The translations under genes were made by a program, and so were the position numbers. 32,348 nt of DNA. Origin: an uncultured Pseudomonadota bacterium. Its GTDB lineage: Bacteria; Myxococcota_A; UBA9042; PHBI01; CALCNF01. The DNA is taken from assembly GCA_937897815.1 (NCBI GenBank), contig CALCNF010000041.1, positions 1 through 32,348 of the forward strand. The letters run 5' to 3'. Shown here one piece after another: positions 6,801 through 25,312 of this stretch. Each line of letters opens with the position of its first letter. Position 1 is the first letter of the stretch. The notes under the pieces were generated by a model that saw nothing but the letters and a program-made list of their open reading frames with translations, searched no databases and had not been told where the DNA came from.

Positions 6801-9800
6801 CGACAACTGTCCCTTCGACTACAACCCCGATCAGGCGAACCTGGATGGGGACGCGCAGGGCGACCTCTGCGACGATGATGACGATGGCGACTCGGTCCCC
6901 GATGTGCTGGACACCTGCCCGAAGAAGACCCCGGGCGCCTACCAGCTCGACACGGATGGTGATGGCCAGGGTGATCTCTGCGACACGGATGACGACGGCG
7001 ACGGCGTGCCCGACCCGGTCGACGTTTATCCCACGGATCCCACCGAGTGGCTCGACTCGGATAAGGACGGCGTGGGCGACAACGCGGACGCCTTCCCCGT
7101 CGATCCCAGCGAGCAGAGCGACGCCGATGGTGACGGCTTCGGTGACAACACGGACCCCGATCCTCTGAGCCCGGCTCCCCCTGGAGACACGGACGGTGAC
7201 GGCGTGGTCGACGATCAGGATCCCTTCCCGAACGACGGCTCAGAGAGCGGCGATCTCGACGGGGACGGAACGGGCGATAACGCCGACACCGATGATGACG
7301 GCGACTCCGTCCTCGACGTGCTCGACAACTGCCCGGGGACCGTCAACACCGATCAAGATGACCTGGATGCCGATGGTCTGGGAGACGCCTGTGATCCGGA
7401 CGTGGATGGTGACGGATTCACCAACGCTGACGACGAGTATCCCCTCGACGGTGACGAGTGGAAGGACACGGACGGCGACGGCGTGGGCGACAACGAAGAC
7501 GCCTTCCCCTTGAGCGCGACGGAGACGGTCGACAGCGACGGCGACGGGGTCGGCGACAACGCGGATGAGTACCCCTTCGACGCCTCCGAGCAGTTCAACA
7601 GCGACGCCTGCCCGGACAACGATGGCGATGGTTCTCCGGACACTCCAGGACCGGACGACTCCTGTGACACCGTGGGCAACAACCTCGATCTGGATGATGA
7701 CGGCGACGGCGTCTACGACGTCGATGACAACTGCCCGCTTCACCCGAACGCGGCGCCCCTGGCGCTCGAGAACGGCGTCGACGCCATCTCGTGCGCCGAC
7801 CAGCCCTGCCCGCTGCCCAGCCAGGACTGCTACATCGACAACCTGTGCCATGAGGCCCAGACCGACACGGACCAGGACGGCTACGGTGATGCCTGCGAGA
7901 GCTCCATCGACTCGGATGGCGACGGGATCGCCGATGAGGACGAGAAGGTGATCGAGGGCACCTGCTCCGACACCGACGAGGCCTGCACGACGGACGACGA
8001 TTGCCTGGCCGGAATCTGCGAGGGCTACAAGGACTGCATCCTGGTCTCAGCGTTCCTCGACGAGGACAACGACTGCGTACCGACGGACGCCAACGGCAAC
8101 GGCGTTCTCGATCCCGAGGACGACGCCTTCCCCGAGGACGGCACCGAGGACAAGGACACCGACCGCGATGGCATCGGCAACAACGCGGATACGGACGACG
8201 ACAACGACGGCGTGCCCGACGAGTCCGACGATCTGCCCCTGGACGCCACCTCCTCGGTGGATACGGACGGTGATGGTGTCGGCGACGAGACCGACGCGTT
8301 CCCCAACGATCCGGCTGAGCAGTCGGACACGGACGGGGACGGCATCGGCGACCAGGCCGACGGCGACGATGACCAGGACGGCGTGCCCGATGGTCTCGAC
8401 GATCTACCCCTCGACCCGACCGAGAGCGTCGACAGCGACGGTGACGGCGTGGGCGACAAGAAGGACGCCTTCGTCGACGACCCGACCGAGAGCGCGGACT
8501 CCGACGGGGACGGCGTCGGCGATAACGCCGACACCGATATCGACGGTGATGGGGTCCTGAACCAGCAGGACGCCTTCCCCTATGACGCCTCGGAGTCGGT
8601 GGACAGCGACGGTGACGGCGTGGGTGACAACTCCGACGCGGATCCCTTCGATGACGAGGAGACCCTCGACTCCGATGGCGACGGCGTGCCCGACGGCAAG
8701 GACGTCTTCCCAAGCGACGCCGGCGAGTGGCTCGACACCGATGGTGACGGCGTGGGCGACGAGCTCGACGACGACGCGGACGGCGACGGCGTGGCCGATG
8801 AGCAGGACGCCTTCCCCACGGACCCGACCGAGTCGGTGGACACCGACGGTGACGGCCTGGGTGACGAGACGGACACCGATGATGACGGTGACACGGAGCT
8901 CGACGTCCTCGACAACTGCCCCAAGGTGCCCAATCAGAGTCAGGAGGACTTCGACCACGATGATCTCGGTGACGTCTGCGACGACGACGATGACGGAGAT
9001 GGCCTCCTGGACGCGGTGGACAACTGCCCCATGGAGGACAACCCGGAGCAGCTCGACAATGACGGTGACGGCCTCGGGGACATCTGTGACCCCGATGACG
9101 ACAACGACGGTGTGCCCGATGGCGACCAGACCGTCCTGTGTCAGACCGGCCAGACCCTCAACTGCTCGGACAACTGTCCCTTGGTCTACAACCCCACCCA
9201 GAGCGATCTCGGTGACGGATCTGACGGGATCGGCGACGCCTGCGATGACTCGGACGGCGATGGCCTGAGCGACGCATTCGACAACTGCCCCGTGGTCGCC
9301 AACGCCGACCAGACCGACGCGGATGGTGACGGCCTGGGCGATCCCTGTGAGGCTGACTCGGATGGCGACGGCGTGCCCGACGTCTACGATTGGGCTCCCT
9401 ACGACGACAGCGAGCAGCTCGACACGGACGGTGACGGCGTGGGCGACAACGCGGACGCCTTCCCGACCGACCCAACGGAGCAGATCGACACGGATGGTGA
9501 CGGCGTCGGTGATCTCAAGGACACGGACGCGGACGGCGACGGGATCCCCGACGATGAGGATCTCTACCCGACCCTGCCCAACGGTCTGGACACCGATGGC
9601 GATGGCTCGCCTGACGTGGTCGATCAGGACGACGACAACGACGGTGTGCCTGACGCCACCGACAACTGTCCGCTCCTGTCGAACATCAGCCAGGCCAACC
9701 TGGATGAGGATCTGGAGATCGAGGCCGGTGAGGTCGCCCTCGGAGACGTCTGCGATGACGACGATGATGGAGACGAGACGCCGGATCTCTACGACCTCTG

Positions 9801-12800
9801 CCCCGAGACCTTCGATCCCGAGCAGAGCGATCTGGACAGCGACGCGGTCGGCGACGCCTGCGACGACGATATGGACGGCGACGGGGTGGACAACGACCTC
9901 GATGATCTCCCCGCCGATCCCTTCGAGACGAAGGACAGCGACGGTGACGGTGTCGGCGACAACGCCGATCTCTTCCCCGACAATTCGGACGAGCAGATCG
10001 ACACCGACGGCGACGGCCTCGGCGACAACTTCGCGGACTCCGACGACGACAACGACGGCATCCCGGATGACGAAGATCTCCTCCCGAAGAACAACGACTT
10101 CCTGGTGGATGACGATGGAGACGGTGTCCTCGACGTCGACGATGCTTTCCCCTTCGATCCGACCGAGAGCGAGGATTCGGACGGCGACGGGATCGGCAAC
10201 AACCAGGAGACCGACGACGACAACGACGCCTTCCCTGACACGATCGACAACTGTCCGACGACCCACAACCTGGACCAGGTGGACACGGACTCGGATGGCC
10301 TGGGAGACGCCTGCGACGACGACGACGACAACGACGGTATCCCCGATGCTACCGATCCCTGTCCGCTCCTCGAGCTGGCGCCGCTCTATGAGGATGACCT
10401 CGACGGAGACGGCTACAGCGACTCCTGTGACTCCGATGACGATGGGGACGGCGTGGTCGACAGCCTCGATCTCTTCCCGAACGATCCGAACGAGAGCAAG
10501 GACAGCGACGGTGACGGCGCCGGTGATAATGAGGACCTCGCGCCCAACAGCGACGCGGTCACGGTGGACACCGACGGTGACGGGCTCATCAACGAGATCG
10601 ATCTCGACGACGACGGTGACGGCGTGCCTGACACCGAGGACGCCTTCCCCTTCGACGCCTCGGAGGCCTACGACAGCGACGGTGACGGCGTGGGTGACAA
10701 CGCCGACCCGGCTCCGCTCGATCCGGCCCTGAGCGAGGACGCGGACGGCGACGGCATCGCGGATCCCTTCGATGAGGACGACGACGGCGACGGCGTACCC
10801 GACACCGAGGACGCGTATCCCTTCGATCCCAAGAAGAGCCTGGACACGGACCAGGACGGAATCGATGACATGGTCGATCCTGACGACGACGGCGACGGCG
10901 TCCCGGACACCGAGGATGAGTATCCGCTCAACGCCTTCGAGGCCTATGACACCGACGGCGATGGAACGGGCGACAACGAGGATCTCGATGACGATGGGGA
11001 CGGGATCAACGACGAGTACGACGAGTTCCCCCTCGATCCGACCGAGACCACCGACACGGACGGCGACGGCGTCGGCGACGTGGCGGACATCGCGCCTACG
11101 GACCCCAACCTGTCGAAGGACACCGATGGAGACTTCATCGCTGATGAGGTGGACGTCGATGACGACGGCGACGGTATGCCCGATGAGTTCGATGCCTTCC
11201 CCCTCGATCCGACCGAGACCGAGGACTCGGATGGCGACGGTATCGGCGACAACGCCGACCCGGCGCCCTTCGACCCTGACGTGAGCCTCGACACCGACGG
11301 AGACCTCATCGCCGATGAGGACGACGCCGATGACGATGGTGACGGTGTGCTCGACGTGAACGACGCGTTCCCGCTCGATCCCAACGAGGTCAGCGACCAC
11401 GACGGCGACGGTATCGGCGATAACGCCGACACCGACGACGACGGCGATGGTGTGGAGGACGCCTACGACGCGTTCCCGCTCAACGGCGACGAGTCGAAGG
11501 ACCTCGACGGTGATGGCGTCGGTGACGGCGTGGATCCCGACCTGGATGGCGACCAGGTCAGCAACGAGGCCGAGCTCGCCTGCGGGACCGACCCTGAGGA
11601 CGCCTCGGATGTGCCGGACACCACGAACACGGACGCGCCTGAGAACGCGGCTGAGGGTGTGGCTACGGACACGGACATCGACTGCTTCGACAGCGATGAC
11701 GATGGCGACGGCTACGACGATCTCCTCGAGATCACCTGTGGGTCCGATCCCCTCGACGCGACCAGTCTCCCGGTCGGGGTGGAGAACCACCACGACGCGG
11801 ATGACGACGGCGTGTGCGACAACCTCGATGAGGATGATGACGGTGACGGTTGGGCGGACGAGGATGAGACGACGTGTATGTCCGATCCCTTCGACGCCGA
11901 GCAGACTCCGGCGGATCTCGATGGTGACGGCGTGTGCGACATGCTCGACGCCGACATCGACGGTGATGGCGCCTCGAACGAGGAGGAGTCGGTGTGCAAG
12001 ACCGATCCTCTCGACGCCTCAAGCACCTCGACCGGTCAGACGCTCACGGACTTCGACGCGGACGGGATCCCCGACTGTGGAGATCCAGACGACGACAACG
12101 ACGGTCTGACCGACGTCATCGAGGCCGAGATTGGCTCCAATCCGACCTCGACCGACTCCGATGGTGACGGCATCGAGGACGGCGTTGAGGACGCCAACCA
12201 GGACGGCGTGCTCGATGATGGTGAGACCTCGCCGGTGCTGGCCGACAGCGACGGTGACGATCTCAGCGACAGCCTCGAGCTCGCCTCGTGCTACGACTCG
12301 GGCGCCGAGGGCTGGGTCTCTCCGACCGACACGCCGAGCCTCTGTGGTCAGACCGATCCCCGACAGGCGGACACGGATGGCGACGGGCTGCTCGACGGTC
12401 ATGAGGACGCCGATCTCGACGGCCAGTGGGCGCAAAACGAGACGAGCCCGCTCATGGCGGACACGGACGGCGATGGCGCGACCGATAAGGACGAGCTCGC
12501 CTGCGAGTCCTCGCCCCTCGATCCAGCCTCGCTGCCGGTGGACCAGGACGCGGATGGCCAGTGTGATCTCGCGATCCACGACTCGGACGCGGACGGCGTG
12601 GTGGACACGTTGGAGAACCTCTGCGGTACCGATCCGCTCGACGGCGGCCAGGTCCCTGGTCTCAATGAGATCGGAGACACGGACGGCGACGGGCTCCTCG
12701 ACTGTGTGGATCCCGACGACGATGAGGATGGCGCGCTCGACTCGATTGAGCAGGCCTGTGGCACCGATCCCCTGGACGCCTCTGAGGTGCCCACGGTGGA

Positions 12801-14640
12801 GGAGACCGCGGATCTCGACGGCGACGGAGCCCCCAACTGCGCGGACGAAGATCGTGACGGTGATGGGGTCAGCGACGCCATCGAGGAGGTGCTGGGCCTC
12901 GACCCGAACCGCGCGGACACCGACGGTGACGGACAGCCCGACAACCTCTCGGAGGCCTACTACGGTTATGTGGGCGGCACGATCACCGATGAGGACGCCT
13001 CACCGGTGGTCTCCTCGGGCGGCTCGGACAGCGGGTGTGGCGCCGGTCGCGACGCCACTCCGGCCGGGCTGGTCCTGTGTCTCTTCTTCGGTCTGACGCT
13101 CCTGTGGCGCCGCCGCCGCAGCCGGGCGATCCTGGGAACAGGAGCGCTCGCCTGCGTCCTGGCCCTGGGCTCGCTTCACCCGAGCGCTCAGGCGGCGGGG
13201 ACGGGCTTCATCGCCGATGGATTCGAGGCGCTGCCCGCGCATCATCGAAACCACATCGTGGTCTCGACCTCGGATGTTCTCTCCCACGGGGATGGTTCGA
13301 CCTCGCTCATCATGAGCCAGGCCCGAAACATCCTCAGCGCAGCGGACCTTCAGGTCGGGGGAGTGGAGGCCCTGAGCTACCCCGTTGAGGGTCAGCTTCG
13401 GACGGAGATCTTGAGCGCCTACGGCCTCTTCGACCTCATGGACATCGGGGTCGCGATCCCGGTCCTCGCCTACCAGTGGGGCGATGACCTCGCGGGCATC
13501 GACCGGCCTGGGCAGGACGTGGACGGCACGGTGCTCGGTGACGTGCGGATTCACCCGAGGATCCGCTTCGTGCGGCGCGAGGCCACAGGGGGGCTCGGGG
13601 TTGCGGTCGCCGCCTCCCTTCACCTCCCCACGGGAGACGTGAACAGCTTCAACTCCATGGGCGTGTTCCGAGCGGAGCCCAGGCTGATCATCGACTGGCT
13701 CTCGCCCGACGGGCGCCTGGCCATCGCGACCAACCTCGGCTACCACGTGGGCCCTCGCTACGTGTACCGTGGGCTCGTCTTTGACGACGACCTGCGCTGG
13801 GGAGCCTCGCTCCAGAGCGAGCTCTCGGTGGCCGATTACGCCTTCGTCGCGACCTTTGGTGCTCGAGGCTCGGTGCCCCTGGAGATGTCCCTTGGCGCCG
13901 GAGACCTCTCCAAGGTCGGCGTACCCGTTGAGCTTATCGGAGCGCTCAAGCTCCCGCTGAGTCACCATCTGGTCTCAGAGATCGGCTACGCTCAGAGCCC
14001 GTCGACGGGGATCGGCGCGCCAGGGTTTCGGGTCTTCGCGGGCTTGACCTTCGGCTGGCCCAAGCAGGAGTTCTTCGCGGGGCCCGTTCCCCTGGAGGGC
14101 GACCGCGATGGAGATCTCTTGATTGACCCCATCGACGCCTGTCCGGATGAGCCTGAGGACACCGATGGCTTTGAAGACGAAGACGGATGCCCCGAGCTGG
14201 ATCGGAGCCTCTGGCATCAGCGCCAAGGCGTCCTGACCTTCGCCGGAGAGGCCAGCTCGATCCTCTCGGAGAAGAGCCACGCGGTGATCCGAGACACGGC
14301 CAACGCCATCGCCGAGCTGGCGAACAAAGAGGGCGGTCTCGACCACATCGTCGTCATGGGGTTCGCCGATGACCTCGATGATGAGAGCGCCAACCGCGAG
14401 CTGGCCCAGGAGCGCGCCCGAGCGGTCGCGGGTCTCCTGGCGACCTACGGCATCGCGCGCGAGTTCATGAAGGTGGAGGCCTCGACGGGGGCCCCACTGC
14501 GCGGCGTGGGGGCGCCTGAGCGCTCCCCGGATCCAAGACGTGTACAGCTGCGCGTCGTGGTGCGCGGCAAGACCGTACCTACGAACACCACCCAGTCGCC
14601 GCGGCCCGATGCCGTCGCTGAGTTGGGAGGAGCACGATGA
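1..14640 (+). CDS. Giant Cys-rich/TSP3-repeat cell-surface protein fused through an internal MYXO-CTERM-like motif to a TraB-like beta-barrel, TSP3 and OmpA-like domain (5' partial)
   Basis: Frame 1 is open from base 1 (NACTTGDTCSEGSC...), so the true start lies upstream of the window; stop TGA at 14638-14640. Domain order: CDDxNxCTxDxC repeats, CGDG...ExCD repeats, RVFVTS domain, a long DxDxDG/DNCP/DAFP repeat tract, GC-TM-RRRR, amphipathic beta-strand region, OmpA-like GFADD...NRELAQERARAV...RRVQL. Confidence 0.92.
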   Translation, partial: NACTTGDTCSEGSCVGGAAPDCDDSNVCTTDTCDALAGCVNTPNTDPCDDSNAATGPDTCSGGSCSGSPIECNQASDQCVASSTPNGAGCDIVNEDDGTLCSDGSNNTKDDVCTAGICGGTNIDCSGEAVDTCTPSHSPNGVGCSPNHAVTGTSCNDFLNGTKDDVCDGSGTCAGTPYDCLGEAISQCTPNYSANGVDCTPNHLANEAPCNDGDPSTQDDECDGNGTCGGTGYSCPATTTCIPSYTQNGAGGCTAVHATEGTSCDDSNPNTSNDECDGEGNCVACGDGVQQPDEACEDSNIDAGDGCSASCTVEAGWVCNPHCEAGACGDGIQAGTEQCDAGVANSDAWAAGDHCNASCELGKAPYCGDGDADTGDSNGDGIDDEICDDGADNSDQYSPTARCDTTCQDYAPYCGDGDTDEGDEVCDDKDDNADGWTVNQTCNTSCNAYQPYCGDGIVTAPHEVCDINGDASCQPGCQTQDSDSDGIVESLDNCPSVPNANQANFEVDEETEACSDASDCTPGNCIGGVCVVGDACDTDDDNDGVVDAEDTDPNNRLVCQDSDSDECDDCAILGYADPANDGVIDRDEDGLCDIGSSCRARVFVTSQIFTGQLGGLDGADNACANAAQNADLNAVGTTNRWRAWIGTSEAGPAQRIGHMPFPFVLVVPEGEAEVQIAASWEKLTSGNLDHPIDRNEAGQPISDDVRIWSFTQMDGDAHGTGTIGHCNGWTTKGPNFIGHVGQPAFTDGNDANLATGVGIGADPETLGCNTKQRLLCVEVISDCGDPDDDNDGVPDGDGLVMCPSTPPGECTDGCLGNCGLSCPAGCPTDCPSACSDNCPRISNASQADDDGNGIGDICDLDSDGDGFKDNSDNCPLIPNADQADADNDTQGDVCDNDLDNDTIVNALDNCPDVYNLDQDDMDPFYVEDPDNPGEYIKSACGNKDDCTEEQSCVDGYCVGDGIGDACDFDVDADQVLDSEDNCPEDWNIDQADLDGDGHGDVCDADEDGDGIADSVDNCPRAANLNQIDHDGDGAGDLCDGDDDDDGFADGGDNCPLLKNSAQACAADSSCEGAVAVPCTIDAHCAKGTCIEGYCRKECGASCTNQSDSYCSKYGECLISQVDTDGDGLGDACDEDDDGDLWFDSSDTCPADADEAQLDLDSDGEGDACDDDIDGDDLVNSASACCSERQEPGCSVDDPTAEFNPSNKNALELCICDAIGASPGYGPDTYCCTNKWDDICAANAVAHCGLACSNDNCPDVYNPDQVDSTEMSLNPAEFPIEGDGVGDVCDDDKDGDGISDDPLLPPCNGPGQTGCSDTCPLVPNADQLDLDGDFVGDVCDVDDDGDVIADVLDNCPVIYNPDQADADGDEVGDLCDTCPQDADAHDDDGDGVDSCQDNCPEHANADQLDSDEDGFGDACDVDDDSDGMLDTYGVDGADNCPTVSNPDQADSDGDLVGDACDNCPNIPNKNANGPQKDHDNDGLGDACDPDDDGDGVMDVADNCPFDPNADQTNHDLLAELAELAAGGVVQGDVCDPDDDNDGFLDEDDACPFTPEDVQADTDGDGFGDLCDSCPFDPIDGGHDTDFDGKCNAVDNCPLLANPEQENTDLALEQGADQIACDENDPCDEGACILGICIAGDACDSDDDNDGLLDYLDPCPAVLDDADGDCIGGADDDYPDDPSKSGDADSDDDETCTTNNKLCGDDSVDTDDDNDGVLDVDDNCPVVPNATALVSPEIECVEASDCVGDTYCGTDAKCHEAQANQDQDLEGDLCDVDDDNDGILDDGDGVDASAEDNKVCATAQESGCDDNCPNVANPGQMDTDGDGQGDACDTDDDGDGVPDVYDSTPMGADDPTSDDDDGDGVLDLEDAFPLNPNESNDLDGDGIGDNADLDDDGDGVADAADNCPMWANADQLDTDADTEGDVCDEDDDGDSVLDADDAYPLDGAESADSDGDGVGDNVDAFPNDPSESVDSDGDGVGDNADPAPYDAEHSVDTDGDGFPDTDESAEKDKDGDSVLDALDNCPLTVNADQADADADAQGDACDTDDDGDGVLDVDDLCPLTADPDQLDTDDDGQGDLCDPCPQDVTVNASGDDDGDGLCPSDDNCPQIANISQFDLDGDGEGDACDNDDDGDELLDLIDPCPLLSADNDADQDCVADDEDAFPNDPEKAADADQDGIDDAADLYDDGDSIPDELDNCPGIDNDDQADFDGDGLGDVCDTDKDGDAVPDELDLCPWTPDPAQTNLDGDAFGDACDSDIDGDILPNEVDNCPFDYNPDQANLDGDAQGDLCDDDDDGDSVPDVLDTCPKKTPGAYQLDTDGDGQGDLCDTDDDGDGVPDPVDVYPTDPTEWLDSDKDGVGDNADAFPVDPSEQSDADGDGFGDNTDPDPLSPAPPGDTDGDGVVDDQDPFPNDGSESGDLDGDGTGDNADTDDDGDSVLDVLDNCPGTVNTDQDDLDADGLGDACDPDVDGDGFTNADDEYPLDGDEWKDTDGDGVGDNEDAFPLSATETVDSDGDGVGDNADEYPFDASEQFNSDACPDNDGDGSPDTPGPDDSCDTVGNNLDLDDDGDGVYDVDDNCPLHPNAAPLALENGVDAISCADQPCPLPSQDCYIDNLCHEAQTDTDQDGYGDACESSIDSDGDGIADEDEKVIEGTCSDTDEACTTDDDCLAGICEGYKDCILVSAFLDEDNDCVPTDANGNGVLDPEDDAFPEDGTEDKDTDRDGIGNNADTDDDNDGVPDESDDLPLDATSSVDTDGDGVGDETDAFPNDPAEQSDTDGDGIGDQADGDDDQDGVPDGLDDLPLDPTESVDSDGDGVGDKKDAFVDDPTESADSDGDGVGDNADTDIDGDGVLNQQDAFPYDASESVDSDGDGVGDNSDADPFDDEETLDSDGDGVPDGKDVFPSDAGEWLDTDGDGVGDELDDDADGDGVADEQDAFPTDPTESVDTDGDGLGDETDTDDDGDTELDVLDNCPKVPNQSQEDFDHDDLGDVCDDDDDGDGLLDAVDNCPMEDNPEQLDNDGDGLGDICDPDDDNDGVPDGDQTVLCQTGQTLNCSDNCPLVYNPTQSDLGDGSDGIGDACDDSDGDGLSDAFDNCPVVANADQTDADGDGLGDPCEADSDGDGVPDVYDWAPYDDSEQLDTDGDGVGDNADAFPTDPTEQIDTDGDGVGDLKDTDADGDGIPDDEDLYPTLPNGLDTDGDGSPDVVDQDDDNDGVPDATDNCPLLSNISQANLDEDLEIEAGEVALGDVCDDDDDGDETPDLYDLCPETFDPEQSDLDSDAVGDACDDDMDGDGVDNDLDDLPADPFETKDSDGDGVGDNADLFPDNSDEQIDTDGDGLGDNFADSDDDNDGIPDDEDLLPKNNDFLVDDDGDGVLDVDDAFPFDPTESEDSDGDGIGNNQETDDDNDAFPDTIDNCPTTHNLDQVDTDSDGLGDACDDDDDNDGIPDATDPCPLLELAPLYEDDLDGDGYSDSCDSDDDGDGVVDSLDLFPNDPNESKDSDGDGAGDNEDLAPNSDAVTVDTDGDGLINEIDLDDDGDGVPDTEDAFPFDASEAYDSDGDGVGDNADPAPLDPALSEDADGDGIADPFDEDDDGDGVPDTEDAYPFDPKKSLDTDQDGIDDMVDPDDDGDGVPDTEDEYPLNAFEAYDTDGDGTGDNEDLDDDGDGINDEYDEFPLDPTETTDTDGDGVGDVADIAPTDPNLSKDTDGDFIADEVDVDDDGDGMPDEFDAFPLDPTETEDSDGDGIGDNADPAPFDPDVSLDTDGDLIADEDDADDDGDGVLDVNDAFPLDPNEVSDHDGDGIGDNADTDDDGDGVEDAYDAFPLNGDESKDLDGDGVGDGVDPDLDGDQVSNEAELACGTDPEDASDVPDTTNTDAPENAAEGVATDTDIDCFDSDDDGDGYDDLLEITCGSDPLDATSLPVGVENHHDADDDGVCDNLDEDDDGDGWADEDETTCMSDPFDAEQTPADLDGDGVCDMLDADIDGDGASNEEESVCKTDPLDASSTSTGQTLTDFDADGIPDCGDPDDDNDGLTDVIEAEIGSNPTSTDSDGDGIEDGVEDANQDGVLDDGETSPVLADSDGDDLSDSLELASCYDSGAEGWVSPTDTPSLCGQTDPRQADTDGDGLLDGHEDADLDGQWAQNETSPLMADTDGDGATDKDELACESSPLDPASLPVDQDADGQCDLAIHDSDADGVVDTLENLCGTDPLDGGQVPGLNEIGDTDGDGLLDCVDPDDDEDGALDSIEQACGTDPLDASEVPTVEETADLDGDGAPNCADEDRDGDGVSDAIEEVLGLDPNRADTDGDGQPDNLSEAYYGYVGGTITDEDASPVVSSGGSDSGCGAGRDATPAGLVLCLFFGLTLLWRRRRSRAILGTGALACVLALGSLHPSAQAAGTGFIADGFEALPAHHRNHIVVSTSDVLSHGDGSTSLIMSQARNILSAADLQVGGVEALSYPVEGQLRTEILSAYGLFDLMDIGVAIPVLAYQWGDDLAGIDRPGQDVDGTVLGDVRIHPRIRFVRREATGGLGVAVAASLHLPTGDVNSFNSMGVFRAEPRLIIDWLSPDGRLAIATNLGYHVGPRYVYRGLVFDDDLRWGASLQSELSVADYAFVATFGARGSVPLEMSLGAGDLSKVGVPVELIGALKLPLSHHLVSEIGYAQSPSTGIGAPGFRVFAGLTFGWPKQEFFAGPVPLEGDRDGDLLIDPIDACPDEPEDTDGFEDEDGCPELDRSLWHQRQGVLTFAGEASSILSEKSHAVIRDTANAIAELANKEGGLDHIVVMGFADDLDDESANRELAQERARAVAGLLATYGIAREFMKVEASTGAPLRGVGAPERSPDPRRVQLRVVVRGKTVPTNTTQSPRPDAVAELGGAR
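853..1435 (+). repeat. Myxobacterial disulfide-rich repeats (myxo_disulf_rpt/DUF4215-like) in CDS1
   Basis: Five CGDG...ExCD/E units, e.g. CGDGVQQPDEACEDSNIDAGDGCSASC, CGDGIQAGTEQCDAG, CGDGDTDEGDEVCDD. Confidence 0.8.
1801..2334 (+). other. DUF1554-like (endostatin/C-type-lectin-like fold) globular domain in CDS1
   Basis: RVFVTSQIFTGQLGGLDGADNACANAA...WRAWI...L.HPIDRNE.G...IWS...CNGWT...CNTKQRLLCVE matches the family pattern as I recall it. Confidence 0.7.
2350..12950 (+). repeat. Thrombospondin type 3-like Ca-binding repeat tract of CDS1
   Basis: Roughly 3500 aa of DxDxDGxxDxxDNCP...NxDQ, DAFPxDPxExxDxDGDGxGDNAD and ExxCGTDPLD units; extremely Asp-rich. Confidence 0.9.
13018..13197 (+). 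other. Internal MYXO-CTERM-like sorting signal plus second signal-peptide-like segment (CDS1)
   Basis: GGSDSGCGAGRDATP-AGLVLCLFFGLTLLW-RRRR-SRAILGTGALACVLALGSLHPS-AQA|A. Confidence 0.78.
13198..14570 (+). other. TraB-like module in CDS1: outer-membrane beta-barrel, TSP3 repeat, OmpA-like peptidoglycan-binding domain
   Basis: AYGLFDLMDIGVAIPV, GDVRIHPRIRF, LHLPTGD, GIGAPGFRVFAGLTF barrel motifs; DRDGDLLIDPIDACPDEPEDTDGFEDEDGCPE; OmpA-like C-domain at about 14215-14570. Confidence 0.75.
14626..14631 (+). promoter_or_regulatory. Shine-Dalgarno site of CDS2
   Basis: GGAGGA five bases upstream of ATG 14637, which overlaps the CDS1 stop as ATGA. Confidence 0.7.
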
Positions 14641-17600
14641 AGATGATCTCACTCCGATCTCTGGCAGTTCTGACCGCCTTGACGCTGCTCTCGGGCTGCG
14701 TGGCCTCTGAGGCTGAGCCCTTTGACGCCCTGAACGCGGACACCATTGAGGAGCCCACCGTCGAGAGCCTGGCGCGCCTGGCGCCCGCTTCGGCAGAGAA
14801 GATCGAGCTGGCCGACCACGATCTGTCGCGTCTCTTTGATGGAGACGTGTGTGATCCTGCGGTCGTGCCCGGTTGTCGCGCGACCCTCGTGGGCCAGCGC
14901 TGGATGGACAACATCAACCGCGTGCTCCGGGAGGGCGCCTCCGAGGGCTACGCGGTCCTCACGAGCGAGTTCTTGGCCGGAGAGATGGATCTGGCGATCT
15001 TTGGCGCCCAGTCCATCGACCAGCTCGATCCCCAGGATAGTCTCGCCCTGCGTCAGGAGATCGCCTTCTGGTTCGCGACCCAATACGGCCATGACACCGC
15101 CGTGGGCGGTACGGTCTCCTCGAGCGCTCTCGACGCGGCGGCGCTCCTCTTCGACGCGCTCCAGGACGCCTCCGGTGAGACCTGGCGAATCGGCGTGGTG
15201 GGCTTTGACGCGTCCCAGGATCTTCACGAGGCCCGCGCCGTCACGCCGGCCTTCTTCCGCCCCCGCGACGGCGAGCTGGTCACGCTCGTGACCTCCGACT
15301 CCTACGAGGGCACGGGCTCGGGCGAGCTCACCCTGGATCTGCCTCAGAAGAGCTGGGCCTATGAGGAGTTCGCGGCCGGTTCGACCCTGGACGGCAATCG
15401 CCTGTGGCTCACGCGGTCCTCCGCCCGGCGGGACGCTCAGCCCTGTCCCTTCTGTAAGCCCTCGGCTGACGCGGACGCTCCGGCGGCTCCTCGCCAGCTC
15501 CTCGTTGATGGGCCCGCCCGCGTGATCGCCCAGGACGCCGAGGGTCGACAGACGGCGTTCCTCAGCGGCCAGGTGATCGAGGAGATCCCGGGCAGCAACG
15601 TGCGCGCCGTGTTTACGGGCGATGACGTGCCGCCCCGCCAACTCTTTCTCCCGCCCTCGGGCGAGGTCACGATCCTCGCCAGCGGTCGCCCGGCGCCCGA
15701 GTTCACGGTCCAGCCCGCGACGCGCGTCGAGCTCTACGCCCCCAACTTCGTGGCGGGCACCGGCACCATTGAGACCCCCGAGGGTCAGACCGACACCATT
15801 CGCATCCAGAACGCGGGCAAGCGCCTCTCGTTCTCCACGTGGCACGGAGACGGCGCGAACGTCTTCATCGCCTCCGACGCGGGCGACCAGCCCGTGCTCT
15901 TTGAGCTCGAGACCACGGGCGTGGGGACCGGGCAGAGCCTGTGGATCCAGCTCGACGAAGAGGAGGGCGTCGTCCTCCTCGATATGACGGCCGAGGCGAC
16001 CCTCCGCGGCACCTTCAGCTTCACGATCCAGCGCGGGCTCGATCGCCTGACCTACGTGAGCAGCCTGGATCTTCGAGCCCGAGGCCAATACCGCCTCCAC
16101 TACCGAGACTGGGTCGGCCCAGGTCTACCCATGACCGTGGACGTCGACCTCCAGCCTGATGGCGCGGTCGACCACACGATTGAGCTCTCGGGGTGCACGG
16201 TCGCTGAGGGATGCGAGCACCTAGAGGGCTTCGACGACGACGGTGTCCCCGGTGCTCTCGACAACTGCCCTTCGATCGCCAACGTGGACCAGGCAGACCT
16301 GGACGGGGATGGCCTGGGTGACGCCTGTGACGCGGACATCGACGGCGATGGCGTCGATGAGCTGGGCGCTCTGGAGGGATCGGTCCCTTGTCCCGATCAA
16401 GTGACGGTTGAGTGTGACGACAACTGTCCCGGGATTCACAACCCGACTCAGGCGGACCTGGACGGCGACTTCCTCGGAGACGCGTGTGACGACGACCTCG
16501 ATGGCGACGGCGTCCCTGATGACGGGAGCCTCAACGGCGTTCAGGTGTGCAACGCGCCGTTCATCCTGGGCTGCGACGACAACTGCCCGCTGATCGTCAA
16601 CGAAGACCAGGAGGACTTTGACGACGACGGCGTAGGCGACGCCTGCGACGCGGACATCGATGGCGATGCCATTGTTGAGGATCCGACTCTGGAGAGCTGC
16701 GCCGGGACCACCGAGAACTGCAATGACAACTGCCCCAATCTCTGGAACCCCCTCCAGGAGGACCTCGATGGTGACGGTCTTGGTGATCCCTGTGACGCCG
16801 ACGACGACGCCGACGGGATCGCGGATCTCGGGGACAACTGCCCGCTTCTGGCCAATCCCCAGCAGGCGGACCTCGATTCAGACGCCATCGGCGATCTCTG
16901 CGAGACTGACCTGGACGGCGATGGCATCGGAGAGGATGGGGATGAAGATCAGGCGGCGGATAACCCCTGTGAGCCCGGTCAGAAGACCGAGTGCGATGAC
17001 AACTGTCCCCTGAACTTCAATCCGGAGCAGGAAGATCTCGACGGTGACGGCGTCGGGGACGTCTGTGACACGAACCCCGACGGCGACGCCTTCGACGGCG
17101 CGGCAGATCTCTGCCCAATGATGGCCACCATCGAGCAAAAGGACGATGACGGCGACGGTCTCGGAGACGCCTGCCAGGACACGGACGGAGATGGCGTGCT
17201 CGATGACGGCGCCCTCGATGGGATCGTGGCCTCCTTGAAGCTCTGCGGCCCTGAGCTTCTCACGGACTGCGATGACAACTGCCCACAGAGCGCGAACGCC
17301 GACCAGGCGGACTCCGATGGTGACGGCCTGGGTGACGTGTGCGATCCCGACGCGGACAACGACGGCCTGGCCAACGAGCTGGATATCTGTCCTCTACACC
17401 CCGACCCCGAGCAGGGGGACATGGACGGCGACGGGATCGGCGACCCCTGCGACGATGACGTCGACGGAGACGGCGCACCCAATGACACAGACACCTGCGC
17501 GCTGATCGCGGACCCAGACCACCCGGATCAGGATCAGGATGGGGTCGGCGATGCCTGCGATGACGACATCGACGGTGACGCGGTCCCGAACGCAACCGAC

Positions 17601-20600
17601 AATTGTCCCCTGGGCGTGAACCCGGTTCAGGGCGACATCGACGGCGATGGTCTGGGCGACACCTGCGACACGGACATCGATGGGGATGACGTCCTCAACG
17701 CCTCCGACAACTGCGTTCAGGTCGCCAACGCGACTCAGGTCGATCTGGACGGCGATGGCATCGGTGACGCCTGCGATCCCGATCTGGATGGCGATGGGCT
17801 GCTGGACGGTTCCCAGGATCTCGACGACGACCAGGATGGCGTCATCGATGGGGATGACAACTGTGAGAGCACCCCCAACGCGGACCAGAATAATCTCGAC
17901 GGCGACGATTTCGGTGACGCTTGCGATGCCGATCAGGACGGCGACGGCGTGATCGACACCCAGGACGCCGATGACGATGAGGACGGCGTTCTCGATCTCG
18001 CCGACAACTGCTCGACCATCCCCAACGTCTCTCAAGACGATCTGGACGGGGACGGCCTGGGCGACGTCTGCGACGCGGACATCGACGGTGATGGCGTCTT
18101 GAACGCGGCCGATAAGGACGACGACAACGACGGATTCCAGGACGAATGTATCCCCGGGATCGATCCGTCGGACTGTGTCTCTGACAACTGCACGACCAAG
18201 GCCAATGACGACCAGATCGACTCCGACTTCGACGGGGAGGGTGACGTCTGTGACGCCGATGATGACGGCGACGGTGTCGACGACGCCTCCGATCTCTGTC
18301 CCCTGCTGGCGACCTTAGCCGCTGGCGCGGGCGACCAGGACTGCGAGGACGACGCAGCTTGTGGAGAGGGGACCTACTGCGCTCCCTCCGGCCTGTGCCA
18401 TGTGGGCCACCTCGATCTGGACGGCGACGGTCTTGGCAACGCATGCGACTCGGACGTCGACGGCGACAACGTCACCGATGGTGACGGCTCCTTTCCCTGC
18501 CAGCACGGCCAGATCTACGCCTGCGACGACAACTGTCCGATGGTGTTCAACGCCTCTCAGGCTGACACCGATGGCGACCAGCAGGGCAACGCCTGCGACG
18601 GGGACGACGACAACGACGGAGTGCCCGATGACGGCGTCGAGGGTGAGGTTCCCTGCGCCTCGGGTCAGCTCTCAAGCTGCGATGACAACTGTCCTCTGCT
18701 CGCCAACTCTTTCCAGCTCGACCTGGACGGCGACGGCCTCGGTGATGTCTGCGATGAGGACGACGATGGCGACGGCGTGGACGACGTCGAGGACAACTGC
18801 GCGACCCTGTCGAACCCGGCTCAGGCCAACGCGGATGGGGATCCCCTCGGGGACCTCTGCGATCCGGATGTGGATGGAGACAACGCCCCCAACGAGATCG
18901 ACAACTGCCCGGGCATCCTCAACATCGCGCAGGCGGATGACGATGGAGATGATCTGGGCGACCTCTGCGACAACTGCCCAGACGTCGCCAACCCTCAGCA
19001 GGATGATCTCGATGGCGATGGCCTCGGAGATGGCTGCGATGAGGACCGCGATGGCGACGGCTTCGACAACGGCGACGACAATTGTCCGAACAACTCCAAC
19101 GCCGACCAGGCCGATCAAGACGGCGACTCCACCGGCGACGTCTGTGATAGCGACATCGATGGAGACACGAAGGCGAACTTCGATGACAACTGCCCGCTCA
19201 TCCCCAACGTCGGCCAGGCCGACACGGACCTGGACGGCTTCGGTGACGCTTGTGACCTCGACGACGCCGATCTCGATGGCATCAAGGATCACGTCGACAA
19301 CTGTGACCTGCTCGCGAACCCGCAGCAGGAGGACATGGACCAGGACGGCGTGGGCGATCTCTGTGACGACGACCAGGATGGCGATGGTTTTGCCAACGGG
19401 AGCGACAACTGCCCGGAGACCATGAACGCACCTCCATCGGTCGGCGAGCTTCAGACCGATCAGGATCAGGACGGCCTGGGGGACGCCTGTGACCTCGATG
19501 ATGACAACGACGGCATCCCCGATACGCTCGATAACTGTCCCGAGGACGTGAACCCGGATCAGGCCAACCTCAATGAGCTCGACGAGCTCGCGGATCCCAA
19601 CCTGGCAGTGGAGGGTGACGCGTGTGACCACGATGACGACGGTGACGGGACCCCTGACGACGTCGATCTGGACGACGACGATGACGGAGTCGCCGATGAC
19701 CTGGATAACTGCCCGCTGGTCGTGAACGCCGAGCAGGACAATCAGGACGGTGACGGACTGGGTGATGCCTGTGATGGGGACATCGATGGGGACGACACCG
19801 AGAACCTGAGCGACAACTGTCCTTGGACCCCCAACGTCTCTCAGGCCGATCTGGATCTGGACGGCGTGGGCGACGCTTGTGACGAAGACCTAGACGGCGA
19901 TGGTCAGACCAACGACGTGGACGTGGATGACGATGGCGATCTTGTCGCTGACGGCGTCGACAATTGCCCCCACGCCTACAACGTCAACCAGCAGGACCTC
20001 GACTACGATGACGTGGGCGACGCCTGTGACAACTGCGCGTACGACTACAACGATCAGCAAGGCGATCTCGATCAAGATGAGATCGGCGACCTCTGTGATG
20101 ATGACGCGGACGGCGACAAGATCCTCGAGGACGGGGCCGAAGACGAGGTCGACCCCTGCGAGTCGGGCCAGTCGGCAGGCTGCGATGACAACTGCCCAGA
20201 GGTCTCCAATCACGATCAGCAGGACACAGACGCCGATGGTGTCGGTGACGCCTGCGACCTGTGCCCGCTGGTCCCCAACGCTGGCCAGGAGGACGTGGAC
20301 TTTGACGGTGTCGGTGACGCGTGCGCCGGCGACAGCGATGGTGACGGGACGCCTGACGCTCTGGACCTCTGTCCTACGCTCCAGAACCCGTCGACCGCTA
20401 CCCTCGACACCGATGGAGACGGCGTTGGTGACGACTGCGATAACTGCAAGGGCGAGTCGAACCCCAGTCAGGCAAACCTGGACGGCGATAACCAGGGGGA
20501 CAAGTGCGACGCCGACGGAGACGCCGACGGCATTGGCTACAGCTTCAACAAGCCGAACACCGAGGAGGCCTGCACGGGTGTCCCGGATCCCGATGACGGA

Positions 20601-23600
20601 GATCCCGCGACCGAGGAGAATGACGGAACCAAGGAGTGTGTGGACAACTGTCCGCTGGTCTACAACCCGACCCAGTCCGACACCGATCAGGATGGCCTTG
20701 GCGACGCCTGCGATCCGGACGCTGATGACGATCTCATTCTCGTCTCCGATGGCGACAACTGTCCTCTCGTGTCCAACCCCAACCAGGCAGACCTGGATGG
20801 CGATGGGGTAGGCGACGTCTGCGATGACGATCAGGACGGCGACTCGATCGCCAATGAGCTCGACAACTGCGCGCTCATCGCCAACGCGCCGCCGACCGTG
20901 GGTACGGAGCAGCTCGACCTCGACGGTGACGGGTTAGGTGATGTCTGTGACCTCGACCTGGACGGAGACTCGATCGCCAACGACGAGGACAACTGCCCCT
21001 ACGCGGTCAACGCTCCGGCCCTCTTCGGAGCCCAGCAGTCCGATCTCGATGGCGACGGCCTGGGCGACGCTTGTGATCCTGACTCGGATGGTGACGCCAT
21101 CGGGAACGTCGTTGACCTCTGCAAGGCGGTGGGCGTCGATGTCGACGGTATTCCTGTCCTGGGTCGCTACGATGCGAACGCTGCGATTCCATCAACGGAG
21201 TGCGTCGGTGGTTTCTGCGCCTACGATACTTCGAAGGAATGCACGACGAGCGCGGACTGTCAGAACCTCTGCGATGACCGCGACGCGGACGGGATTCCCA
21301 CGGAGCGAGACAACTGTCCCATCACGGACAACGGCGGCATTGAACAAGCAGATATCGAAACAATGCAGCTCGACAGCAACGCCGACGGCGTGGGTGACGC
21401 GTGCTCAGCTGATCCGGACGCCGACACGATTCCGCTCACGATCGACAACTGTCCCGCCGTGGCGAACCCGGATCAGCTCGACAGCGACGGGGATGGTCTT
21501 GGTGATCTGTGTGATCCCTGCGCGAACATTGCGGCGACGGTGATCAACGACGCGGCCGGGGCTCCCAAGGCCTGCACGATCGATCTTCATTGCGGTGAAC
21601 CGACCGAGGCCTATTGCTCCTTGGCGACCCAGACCTGTCGGGCTCGTCACGGAGACATGGACGGTGACGGTCTGGGCAATATCTGTGACACGGATCAGGA
21701 CGGCGATGGTACGCCCGAGTATCTCAACGACGCCTCCAAGCTCCCCTGCACCTCAGGGGCGATCACGGGCTGCGCCGACAACTGCCCCGAGCTCCCGAAC
21801 CCGGCCCAGCTCGATGATGATGGGGACGGCAAGGGCAACCGCTGCGAGATTGACGCGGACGGTGACTGGATCCTCGACGCCGATGACAACTGCCCGCTGG
21901 TGGCCAACCCGGGTCAGGAGGATCTGGACTTCGACGGTGAGGGTGACGCCTGTGACCTGGACAAGGACGGAGACAACCTGACCTGCTGCGCCGTGACCGA
22001 CACCCCGGGCTGCATCGACAACGCGGCCACCGAGGCCTGCGTGTGCGCGATGGACCCCTTCTGCTGCGCGCAGAGCTGGGACAGCATCTGCGTGGCTGAG
22101 GCGAGCCAGTACTGCGAGAACCCCTGCACCTGCACGGGCAACGTCTGCGCGGACAGCTGTCCCAACGACGTGGACACGACCCAGGCCGACGCCGACATGG
22201 ACGGCGTGGGTGATGTCTGTGACAACTGCCCGAACGCCGTAAACTTCGACCAGGCTGACCTGGACGGTGATCAGGTGGGCGACGTCTGTGACCTCGACAT
22301 CGACACCGATGGCGTCTTCAACAGCCACGACACCTGCATGCTCGCCGTGAACCCCTTCCTGGGCGGGATCGAGCAGCCCAACGCAGACAACGATGCCTAT
22401 GGAGACGTGTGTGACGGGGATGATGATGGTGACGGGATCCCCGATGTCATGGACAACTGTCCGCTCTTGGCCAACGTCGATCAGAACGATCTCGATGGAG
22501 ACCTCATCGGAGATCTCTGCGACACCGACGCTGATGGCGACGGGGTCGCGAACGAGGAGGACAATTGTCGCGGACAGCACAATCCACCGGCTGTGCCGGG
22601 ACTCGCTCAGGCGGACGCCGATGCCGACGGGATTGGAGACGCCTGCGAGCCTCAATGCTCGGAAGCTGTACTCGCGCTCAATAACGATGATGACGACATC
22701 CTGAACAATGACTGTGATGTGGACGCCCTGGGTGAGTTCTTCGACGATCCTTGTGTCACTGGACAGACTGAGGGCTGTGACGACAACTGCATCGGTGTGA
22801 CCAACCCGGATCAAAAGGACACAGACGGAGATGGCCTTGGAGATGCCTGTGACCCCGATGCCGATGGCGATGGGATCCTCGACGCCGCGTCGGACAACTG
22901 CCTGGGTCTGGCCAACGCCGGACAGGAAGACGATGACAATGACAACATCGGTAACTCCTGCGATCCGGACGTCGATGGCGACGGCATCCTCGAGGATGGA
23001 AATGTCGGCGCGGTCGCCTGCAACGCGCCGTTGGTCACGGATTGCGATGACAACTGTCCGCGGGAATCTAACCCAGCTCAGATCGATACGGACAATGACG
23101 GTCTGGGAGACGCCTGCGATCTCGACACCGATCAGGACGGCGTTCTGAACGCCTTCTCGGGGAACGCATTGCTCTGCATCTCGGGCCAGAACGTCGGGTG
23201 CAGTGACAACTGTCCTGACGACCCCAACCCGACGCAGCTGAACTCGGATCTTGATCTTGAGCTGGCGTTCAACACCAACCCCCAGGAGGGTGACGCCTGT
23301 GACGACGACCTCGATCAGGACAAAATCGATGACACGGTCGATCCCAACAGCGGGGACCCCGTCGATAACTGCGCCGAGATCTACAACCCGACGCAGACCG
23401 ACGCGGACGGGGATGGGCTGGGTAACCTCTGCGACATCTGTCCAGACGCCACGGACGTTGGCCAGGACGACAGCGATGGTGATGGACGAGGTGATGCCTG
23501 CGACACCTGTCCTGAGGTCGTATCTCCGCCGATATTTAAGGAGGACACGGCGCTCTGCTCGGGGAATGGAGACTGCGATACCGGTGAGTTCTGCTCCATC

Positions 23601-24662: not shown

Positions 24663-25312
24663 TTCACACCCCACATACGCGCGACTCGAGCCCATGGAGG
24701 GCTTGGGCGCTCGCCCTGGTGATGGCGATGGTGCTCGTGGCCTGCCTCGATGAGCGGGACACCTACATCGTCGATCACATGCCCGACTGCATGCTCGGCT
24801 GCGAAGATCGATGCCTCTCTCAGCACGTCGGCGCGTGCCAGATGGCCTGCGAGGAGAGCTGGTCCTGGTCCCTGGGCCTGACGTTGCCTGTCTGCGGCTT
24901 CGAGTGGGAGGAGGTCGATGAGCACTGCAGAGGCTCAGGCGCCGGCTGCCTGGAGGTCTACGGACCGAAGCTCGGTACGAGCGACGCGGCCGATGAGCTG
25001 TGCGAGGCGTCTATCGCGACCTGGGAGGCCTGTATGGGCGGCTCCTATGTGCTGGACTGTCGCTGGCAGTGTCAGTCCTCCTGTGACGCGGAGGGGCTCG
25101 CGGCTTGTGAGGCCGCCTGCGAGGGCAACTGGAGCTGGATCGATCGCCTGGGAACCGGTCTGTGTCTTTCGGCGCGTAACGCCGTAGATCAGGCCTGCGG
25201 CACCGCGCGCGAGTGCTCGGCCGAGGGGCCTATCTTCGCCACCTCGGCGATCACCGAGGCCTGCAGCCAGGCCTTGAGCACCTGGACCACCTGCTATGAG
25301 GGTCTGAACTAA
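24653..25312 (+). CDS. Putative Cys-rich lipoprotein with two tandem ~90-aa 10-Cys repeats
   Basis: WRAWALALVMAMV-LVAC lipobox-like signal; ATG overlaps the CDS2 stop; TAA abuts the next ATG; repeats start at 24788 and 25058. The exact start is uncertain. Confidence 0.78.
   Translation: MLLIHTPHTRDSSPWRAWALALVMAMVLVACLDERDTYIVDHMPDCMLGCEDRCLSQHVGACQMACEESWSWSLGLTLPVCGFEWEEVDEHCRGSGAGCLEVYGPKLGTSDAADELCEASIATWEACMGGSYVLDCRWQCQSSCDAEGLAACEAACEGNWSWIDRLGTGLCLSARNAVDQACGTARECSAEGPIFATSAITEACSQALSTWTTCYEGLN

Follow-up and report, generated by a model that had tools for sequence, protein, structure and literature searches.

What does the first gene of contig CALCNF010000041.1, from an uncultured bacterium of the lineage Myxococcota_A, encode: one giant protein, or two proteins that are released from a single chain? 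The window, which is the whole stretch of 32,348 nucleotides that was analysed, is the entire contig (C41) and belongs to an assembly of 766 contigs and 4.5 Mb that is 88% complete. Its first coding sequence (CDS1, 1-14640, + strand) is an open frame whose 5' end lies beyond the contig edge and of which 4879 amino acids are present. Within this frame, a hairpin made of a Cys-containing sorting motif, a membrane helix, an arginine cluster and a second, signal-peptide-like helix joins a giant N-terminal part, here called the passenger, to an outer-membrane β-barrel with an OmpA domain. We read CDS1, with moderate confidence, as a gene fusion of natural origin whose product is most likely a precursor polyprotein for secretion, cut at both sites of the hairpin. 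An uninterrupted frame runs through the hairpin, with its two conserved cutting signals, into the barrel, and therefore one chain probably yields two proteins.

The junction and the parts it joins

The junction starts at G4340 with a Gly/Ser-rich, MYXO-CTERM-like signature (13018-13053, on the + strand, as are all parts of CDS1) that contains the motif SGCGAG. The cysteine of this motif, C4346 (13036-13038), is the presumed lipidation and myxosortase site. The first membrane helix follows (13054-13107, A4352-W4369); it is a segment of 19 amino acids by hydropathy and a helix at residues 22-39 of the AlphaFold2 model. Next come the arginine cluster RRRRSR (13108-13125), with an arginine that is at least 90% conserved in its alignment column, and the second helix with its c-region (13126-13194, A4376-A4398), which is signal-peptide-like and ends in AQA. 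The helix proper covers A4376-L4392 (13126-13176) and the c-region HPSAQA covers 13177-13194; the chain then continues with AGTGF, and a signal peptidase I cut is predicted between 13194 and 13195, that is, between A4398 and A4399. With RRRRSR as the n-region, an h-region of 17 amino acids and AQA at its end, the second helix has the pattern of a Sec type I signal peptide that is internal by position. The tripartite build of a MYXO-CTERM signal, i.e., a Gly-rich Cys motif, a membrane helix and an Arg-rich cluster, is present as well, and this sorting motif is not C-terminal: 506 amino acids lie downstream of the match to the MYXO-CTERM model TIGR03901.

An earlier, sequence-only reading of this DNA had placed a sorting-signal pattern about 540 amino acids before the end of CDS1, with a second hydrophobic helix directly after the arginine cluster, ending in AQA before the next alanine, and with no stop codon, ATG or GTG between the helices. 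These observations hold. There are 541 codons from 13018 to the stop at 14638-14640, and the second helix can be read in the same frame. Codon by codon from C4346 to AQA there is no stop and no ATG, GTG or TTG, CTG and ATC being the only near-start codons. No GGAGG-like site stands ahead of the second helix, unlike the start of the following gene, CDS2.

The same reading had allowed for a stop or an indel that splits the gene. None is present over the junction in an independent seawater metagenome contig from Logan (X3), and 43 loci in related genomes, described below, share the junction. X3 is a close variant with 95-99% identity that spans 12700-13385 with 16 substitutions and no gaps. When its two contigs are taken jointly over 12700-13600, 12 of the 17 listed differences fall on third codon positions of the CDS1 frame and are synonymous; several of these lie within the two helices. 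Two further records (X1 and X2) are identical and possibly come from the source sample, and were left out of the independent support. On these comparisons the CDS1 open frame is under purifying selection across the junction, and the junction is not an assembly error.

The part downstream of the second helix comprises a 12-strand outer-membrane β-barrel (13195-14058), an Asp-rich linker of the thrombospondin type 3 (TSP3) kind (14065-14250) and an OmpA-like peptidoglycan-binding domain with a short tail (14251-14577). The linker contains the nearly invariant D, G, C and E columns that end our alignment of the junction and barrel (A2), together with the TSP3_bac matches of Pfam, while the last domain is matched by Pfam OmpA at CDS1 residues 4751-4826 and appears as an α/β domain at residues 417-525 of the AlphaFold2 model. 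Each of the Pfam scores on the downstream part is above its cut-off (OmpA, 32.4 bits; TSP3_bac, 29 bits; Phenol_MetA_deg, PF13557, 27.2 bits with a cut-off of 22). AlphaFold2 places 12 main strands at model residues 98-352, with block values of the predicted local distance difference test (pLDDT) mostly at 88-98, and the ordered part of the barrel starts about 10 residues or less after the AxA site. The best Foldseek match is FapF (5o65, E = 2.8e-9), with a template modelling (TM) score of 0.64-0.69 by target; 4rl8 reaches a TM score of 0.65 by target. Sequence identity to these matches of FapF/COG4313 fold is 10-14%, and autotransporter β domains rank lower in the list than FapF and other 12-strand channels. 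The TraB model NF033763 matches the C-terminal 746 amino acids with E = 1.3e-24 and 86.1 bits over profile positions 3-293 of 522 (76.1 bits on the whole of CDS1), against a cut-off of 700. From these scores the barrel is a distant relative of TraB, with a FapF/COG4313-like fold, and is not TraB. The predicted series of barrel, TSP3 linker and OmpA domain behind the second helix is thus borne out by NF033763, Pfam and AlphaFold2 together. The supposed kinship with TraB stands as far as the order of parts (signal peptide, barrel, TSP3 linker, OmpA domain) and the model match are concerned, and fails as an identification, at 86.1 bits for a cut-off of 700.

The passenger (1-13017) has at least 4339 amino acids and consists of Cys-rich modules followed by TSP3 repeats, which are calcium-binding. 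Pfam TSP_3 is matched in 32 stretches of CDS1 (E = 4.7e-185). The NCBIfam model of MtsC, NF047638, gives 1052 bits on CDS1, a score spread across 21 repeat stretches, and orthology to MtsC is not established by a score of such origin. The PA14 domain was not found on CDS1, where Pfam gave only TSP_3, TSP3_bac and OmpA; since the N-terminus of CDS1 is off the contig, a distal passenger domain beyond the contig end is possible. Likewise, the AgmC N-domain model NF047640 has no match on the 4879 amino acids present, the N-terminus lying beyond the contig end.

Conservation, abundance and origin of the junction

The barrel part was matched in all 41 related genomes searched, with many copies in each, many of which lie in open frames of 1400-4900 amino acids. 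Forty places were chosen from 150 listed barrel matches by an open frame of at least 1260 amino acids. The junction was present at 38 of 39 distinct new loci and at 5 of the 12 loci from a first search, giving 43 loci in 27 of the 41 genomes; because the loci were selected by open-frame length, this set is not a frequency. Aligned with one another, the 43 junctions have only two invariant columns, the Cys and the -1 Ala of the AxA site, and one Arg column that is at least 90% conserved. When the count is anchored on the -1 Ala, the -3 residue is Ala in 33 of the 43 and V, S, G, L or T in 8, and the +1 residue is Q in 20 and A in 10. A simple cleavage-site picker, which chose sites inside Ala-rich helices, was dropped in favor of this alignment-anchored count. 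The distance from the Cys to the first R or K has a median of 24 amino acids (range 21-31), and that from the first R or K to the -1 Ala has a median of 27 amino acids, which is the length of a Sec signal peptide. TIGR03901 matches 23 of the 43 junction fragments at E<=1 (best 7e-7), and the midcut-by-XrtH model NF033207 matches 8 weakly. Judged by this alignment, the junction pattern is far beyond chance. A comparison of CDS1 residues 4335-4700 with proteins of 2683-8539 amino acids gave no match with a word index that is too insensitive for the result to count as evidence.

The junction profile also relates the second helix to a known kind of element. Fused loci align with it from positions 2-11 onward. 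Seven free-standing barrel genes align from positions 30-41 only, the point from which the profile represents the n-region, the signal peptide and the start of the barrel. The free genes therefore begin with the element that fused genes carry as their second helix: the two occupy equal positions in the alignment and are homologous, the free form being an N-terminal signal peptide.

The profile of junction plus barrel (A2) was also run against a library of 1.84 billion representative proteins, with 20,025 matches at E<=1e-3 and 5,669 at E<=1e-30. Among the best 150 matches, 61 begin at or before profile position 14, and 59 of these have 53-4190 amino acids upstream; 88 begin at position 37 or later and within the first 50 residues of the protein, as the free-standing form does, and one is intermediate. 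The junction hidden Markov model (HMM), in an independent pass over the same 150, called 61 fused and 76 signal-peptide-only, with 13 left without a match. As the profile was built from fused forms, the top of this list is enriched for them. Of the 61 fused matches, 47 start with M and have more than 150 amino acids upstream, and an N-terminal signal-like run is present in 38 of these 47. Their source names include 'adventurous gliding motility protein AgmC' (Corallococcus, Myxococcus), 'OmpA family protein [Bradymonadia bacterium]' and 'MYXO-CTERM domain-containing protein'. The AgmC-named proteins P0068, with an AgmC N-domain at 398.8 bits, and P0123, whose name sits on its cluster member P0155, both carry the junction, and P0089 has an MtsC-type N-terminal part (454 bits, cut-off 350) fused to the barrel.

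For the best 80 loci in genomes of named species, the HMM flagged 9 as fused and 58 as signal-peptide-only, and 13 were without a match. Seven of the nine were accepted by eye; they come from a Bradymonadia metagenome-assembled genome (MAG), Corallococcus coralloides and five other Myxococcota MAGs. A survey of 301 genomes of the phylum with a junction-only profile gave 179 genomes at E<=1e-6. This count was rejected as too loose, since the threshold leaks: a canonical C-terminal signal of the present genome reaches 6.6e-7. Counted by hand at a best E<=1e-9, a level at which both helices are covered by the listed matches, the junction is found in 8 of 8 genomes of its own order (this genome included), in 31 of 50 of the same class and in 49 of 243 of the rest of the phylum; with 17 candidates scored per genome, the per-genome junction counts are lower bounds. 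In some lineages a MYXO-CTERM motif within the chain is a common feature and no rarity.

Split forms of the same pair indicate how fused and separate genes may be related. At L139 (G083:C25:38217-39071, - strand) and L140 (G213:C469:979-1842), which belong to two other genomes, a TGA lies between an upstream MYXO-CTERM gene and a barrel gene. The upstream gene encodes a TSP3 protein that ends in a Cys motif, a helix and an Arg cluster, directly followed by the TGA, and the barrel gene with its signal peptide starts three codons past the TGA in the same frame. Going by these two loci, the fused and split forms are one base change apart. No upstream MYXO-CTERM gene was found within 1.5 kb of eight free-standing barrel loci (L003, L005, L007, L008 and L010-L013), which were searched with an HMM built from the 20 canonical signals of this genome. 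On a FastTree tree of 151 barrel domains, the fused or free label has to change 23 times, compared with 46.9 +/- 3 for shuffled labels, and 13 of the 23 changes are imposed by branches with good support; the fused or free state is therefore inherited and has yet been switched many times, although the count of changes is rough, coming from a quick tree of divergent sequences. As far as this tree can be relied upon, fused and free forms interconvert.

Barrels are not the only modules that follow such junctions. Contigs C188, C347, C280 and C422 of the present genome hold more in-frame junctions whose downstream modules are not barrels. C188 (the whole contig, frame 3) and C347 have two junctions each within one open frame that runs off both contig ends, and these junctions join paralogous modules of about 1000 amino acids. 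The two frames look like tandem chains of MYXO-CTERM proteins. It is about an even call, in our view, whether the hairpin as a whole, from Cys tag to signal peptide, is a general linker that can be moved between proteins, is cut twice and serves secretory polyproteins of the Myxococcota, including adhesin-barrel pairs and tandem chains. If so, single stop-codon changes would interconvert fused and split forms, a hairpin peptide of about 50 amino acids would be left per junction in the inner membrane, and 'C-terminal' sorting tags would act as internal processing sites on a large scale.

Two cuts, one cut or none

If CDS1 is a polyprotein precursor, its processing can be pictured as follows. 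The passenger would be exported by Sec until the first helix halts translocation and leaves the Arg cluster as a loop on the cytoplasmic side. This cluster would serve twice, closing the sorting signal and supplying the n-region of the signal peptide behind it, and the second helix would restart export, now of the barrel part. Signal peptidase I would cut after A4398 and set the barrel-OmpA protein free for insertion into the outer membrane and binding to the wall. The Cys would be lipidated and MrtP would cut after it, releasing a lipid-anchored passenger that the type II system would bring to the surface, by analogy with TraA. About 50 amino acids would remain in the inner membrane as a hairpin peptide, and the two products would arise 1:1, probably as a TraA/TraB-like pair of a surface protein and its wall anchor. 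Relevant machinery is encoded in the genome: a myxosortase of the MrtP type with an extra central domain (C177:33450-34544, + strand; NF040674, 259.4 bits with a cut-off of 250; Mrt_core, 123 bits with a cut-off of 100), signal peptidase I, and the type II secretin GspD (477.6 bits). TIGR03901 has 36 matches at E<=10 in this genome; of the best 24, 20 end 0-8 amino acids before the stop and 4 are internal.

Several observations weigh against cutting at both sites. The TIGR03901 match at the CDS1 junction (13024-13119, model positions 3-33) scores 13.4 bits with E = 0.69, below the cut-off of 20, and on a 90-amino-acid junction fragment the model is not listed at E<=10. The earlier claim of a complete MYXO-CTERM signal thus stands for the tripartite build and falls short in the model scan. 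AlphaFold2 confidence is low for both helices, with block pLDDT values of 52-63, and in 2 of the 43 junctions the -3 residue is a poor one (D or Q). A contig from an RNA library (X16) covers only 12909-13094; ending there, it does not bridge the helices and gives no evidence of a transcript that spans the junction. The start of CDS1 lies beyond the contig edge, where its own export signal would be. All processing steps are inferred from conservation, and for a tag followed by 500 amino acids as a myxosortase substrate the sole support is the title of a reference on an archaeosortase substrate whose tag is not terminal.

The most serious alternative is that only one of the cuts is made, for instance that signal peptidase I frees the barrel while the uncut hairpin holds the passenger back in the inner membrane, as a giant protein that is periplasmic or tethered to this membrane and not a lipid-anchored one at the surface. 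This would agree with the sub-threshold TIGR03901 score of CDS1 and with the unusual charged RD stretch between the Cys and the first helix, and according to the available part of one study, M. xanthus without the myxosortase MrtX has a surface defect only in part (PMC11980579). It is difficult, however, to see why all 43 junctions should keep the Cys if it had no use, and both the MrtP match above cut-off in the same genome and the TIGR03901 matches at 23 of the 43 sister junctions speak for its use. We therefore regard a single cut as rather unlikely.

Somewhat less likely still is a different role for the barrel, with processing as in the two-cut scheme. Instead of a TraB-like wall anchor, the barrel would then be the pore that takes its own passenger across the outer membrane, as an autotransporter or FapF does, and the fusion would secure one pore per passenger. 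The idea draws on the fold, which most closely matches the polypeptide transporter FapF and other 12-strand channels, and on the order of the chain, since type Va systems likewise have the passenger ahead of a 12-strand barrel. The remaining features of a type Va autotransporter are not those of CDS1: Pfam gives no autotransporter match, the barrel is followed by an OmpA domain and is not the very C-terminus, and in place of a helical linker through the pore there is a hydrophobic hairpin that contains an Arg cluster. In the available text of two studies, moreover, MYXO-CTERM proteins are reported to use the type II system, and neither TraA nor TraB needs the other to reach the outer membrane (PMC11980579, PMC12045341). 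A lipid-anchored passenger of more than 4300 amino acids would also be an unlikely client for a 12-strand pore.

That the chain stays uncut, as a single protein spanning the inner membrane with its hairpin, the periplasm and the outer membrane with its barrel, is highly improbable. It would account for a single open frame under purifying selection over the junction, and cleavage is an inferred step. Against it, the ordered barrel of the model begins no more than about 10 residues past the AxA site, too short a distance to bridge the periplasm, and the invariant -1 Ala and Cys point to cutting; split forms of the same pair exist, and the fused and free states switch often. We give even less credence to a barrel made separately from an internal translation start, which would make the fusion only apparent. 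Some in-frame ATG, GTG or TTG is present in the tail of the first helix in 30 of the 43 junctions, yet where a separate start would be needed there is none in the other 13, CDS1 included. A hydrophobic helix will contain some codons for Val, Leu and Met by chance anyway, and the second helix lacks the GGAGG-like site that CDS2 has. Finally, an artificial union of two genes through faulty assembly or sequencing, or a recent one by pseudogene-like loss of a stop, can be dismissed in practice, fragmented as the assembly is, because X3 is gapless over the junction with mostly synonymous differences, the junction recurs at 43 loci, one of which (L042) lies in a single-contig genome of 9.3 Mb, and 61 of the 150 top library proteins have it.

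The neighboring genes and the known systems

A second fused protein, CDS4 (25313-29344, + strand), is encoded in the same window. Its order is an N-terminal signal peptide, a choice-of-anchor L domain, a TSP3 repeat, an internal MYXO-CTERM signal (26294-26386), a signal-peptide-like helix that ends in ALA, a TraB-like barrel and a ZirU-like part that occupies the place of the OmpA domain. TIGR03901 matches the internal signal with 26.3 bits, above the cut-off, with 985 amino acids downstream of the match, and the CDS4 junction scores 57.9 bits with the junction profile. NF038133 matches the protein with E = 5e-30, and on 26387-29341 the TraB and ZirU models give E = 6.8e-9 and 1.2e-15, respectively. 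Between CDS1 and CDS4 lie two other genes of the same strand. CDS2 (14637-24662) encodes a TSP3-repeat protein of 3341 amino acids with a lipoprotein-type signal, its lipobox ending in LSGC, and with a Cys-rich C-terminal tail that has no sorting tag. Its ATG overlaps the stop of CDS1 (ATGA), and a GGAGG-like site precedes its start. CDS3 (24653-25312), between the two giant genes and CDS4, encodes a Cys-rich protein of 219 amino acids with an N-terminal hydrophobic stretch, for which no Pfam or NCBIfam family was matched. As to the occurrence of this DNA, the sequence of 12700-13600, or a near-identical one, is present in runs of several studies labelled as marine or seawater metagenome.

If both cuts occur, CDS1 would be a bacterial secretory polyprotein that uses two membrane proteases to make a surface protein and an outer-membrane, wall-bound partner at a fixed ratio of 1:1. 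The myxosortase field would gain many natural substrates whose tag is not C-terminal, and a built-in assembly logic for TraA/TraB-like pairs is suggested. There is also a consequence for annotation, as thousands of giant 'OmpA family' or 'Ig-like domain' proteins may be two mature proteins each. CDS1 itself is an ordinary member of the fused class.

Parts of this arrangement are known from other systems. Signal peptides inside a chain occur in the FbcH cytochrome b/c1 precursor of Bradyrhizobium and in viral envelope polyproteins, where such a signal follows a membrane segment and a signal peptidase cut gives two proteins; these are unrelated to CDS1 and involve no sorting-tag protease. Our literature searches on internal signal peptides in bacterial polyproteins and on fbcH returned nothing usable as a precedent. 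The midcut-by-XrtH family (NF033207) and a Haloferax ArtA substrate, which reportedly has a non-terminal tripartite signal, share with CDS1 a tripartite sorting signal inside the chain that is thought to be processed. They use other sorting enzymes, an exosortase and an archaeosortase, and we know of no following signal peptide or barrel in these substrates. FapF/COG4313 channels share the 12-strand fold of the CDS1 barrel, but they lack the OmpA domain and a fused passenger.

MtsC (MXAN_1334, 'cell-cell cohesion MYXO-CTERM protein', NF047638) resembles the other half of CDS1, being a TSP3-repeat passenger that ends in a Cys sorting signal; it is mentioned in one sentence of the available text of PMC12475490. 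TraA and TraB are the closest two-gene counterpart, a MYXO-CTERM surface protein with a barrel-TSP3-OmpA partner. In the accessible portions of the respective papers, TraB has the order signal peptide, barrel, TSP3 and OmpA, the TraA:TraB complex is 1:1 with the base of TraA predicted to sit on the TraB barrel (PMC12045341), and MrtX cleaves the MYXO-CTERM of TraA in a Cys-dependent manner that serves as the model for MYXO-CTERM processing (PMC11980579). The reading frames of traA and traB share 4 bases (PMC3325183). Two genes encode this pair where CDS1 is a single one, the passenger of CDS1 has no PA14 variable domain by Pfam in the part on the contig, and a link of CDS1 to membrane exchange is not shown. 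The proposal that CDS1 encodes a TraA/TraB-style pair as one chain can accordingly be kept for its architecture and homology, while a TraA-like passenger, against which the TSP3 repeats and the lack of a PA14 match in the part on the contig speak, and the equation of the barrel with TraB have to be given up. As for the myxosortase, the preprint of Haft (10.1101/2023.06.07.544157) assigns the MrtP type to Bradymonadales, a hint at the placement of the present genome; the words internal, fusion, fused, polyprotein and TraB do not occur in it.

The system nearest to CDS1 is MXAN_5598 of Myxococcus xanthus, whose relatives are named 'adventurous gliding motility protein AgmC' by NCBI. In the part of the article by Guo, Haft and Wall that was available (mBio 2025, PMC11980579), it is described as an adhesin with an internal MYXO-CTERM, an outer-membrane barrel and an OmpA domain, is likened to TraA plus TraB and ascribed to gene fusion, and its N-terminal part is proposed to be processed and anchored at the surface; internal MYXO-CTERM motifs are called rare there, and a second signal peptide or a signal peptidase cut is not mentioned for MXAN_5598 in that part. 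The sequence-only reading had supposed that similar fusions exist in other myxobacteria, and MXAN_5598 together with the AgmC-named proteins that carry the junction proves it right. The architecture is already described in print, the idea is not new, and since MXAN_5598 has been published, CDS1 is a member of a described kind. It shares with the MXAN_5598/AgmC type the order of an adhesin-like part, an internal Cys sorting signal, an outer-membrane barrel and OmpA in one chain; it differs in its passenger, a giant TSP3-repeat protein with no match to the AgmC N-domain in the part on the contig. What is new here is the conserved signal peptidase site that is homologous to free signal peptides, the abundance of the junction, the in-frame split intermediates and the junctions of C188, C347, C280 and C422 that lead into modules other than barrels.

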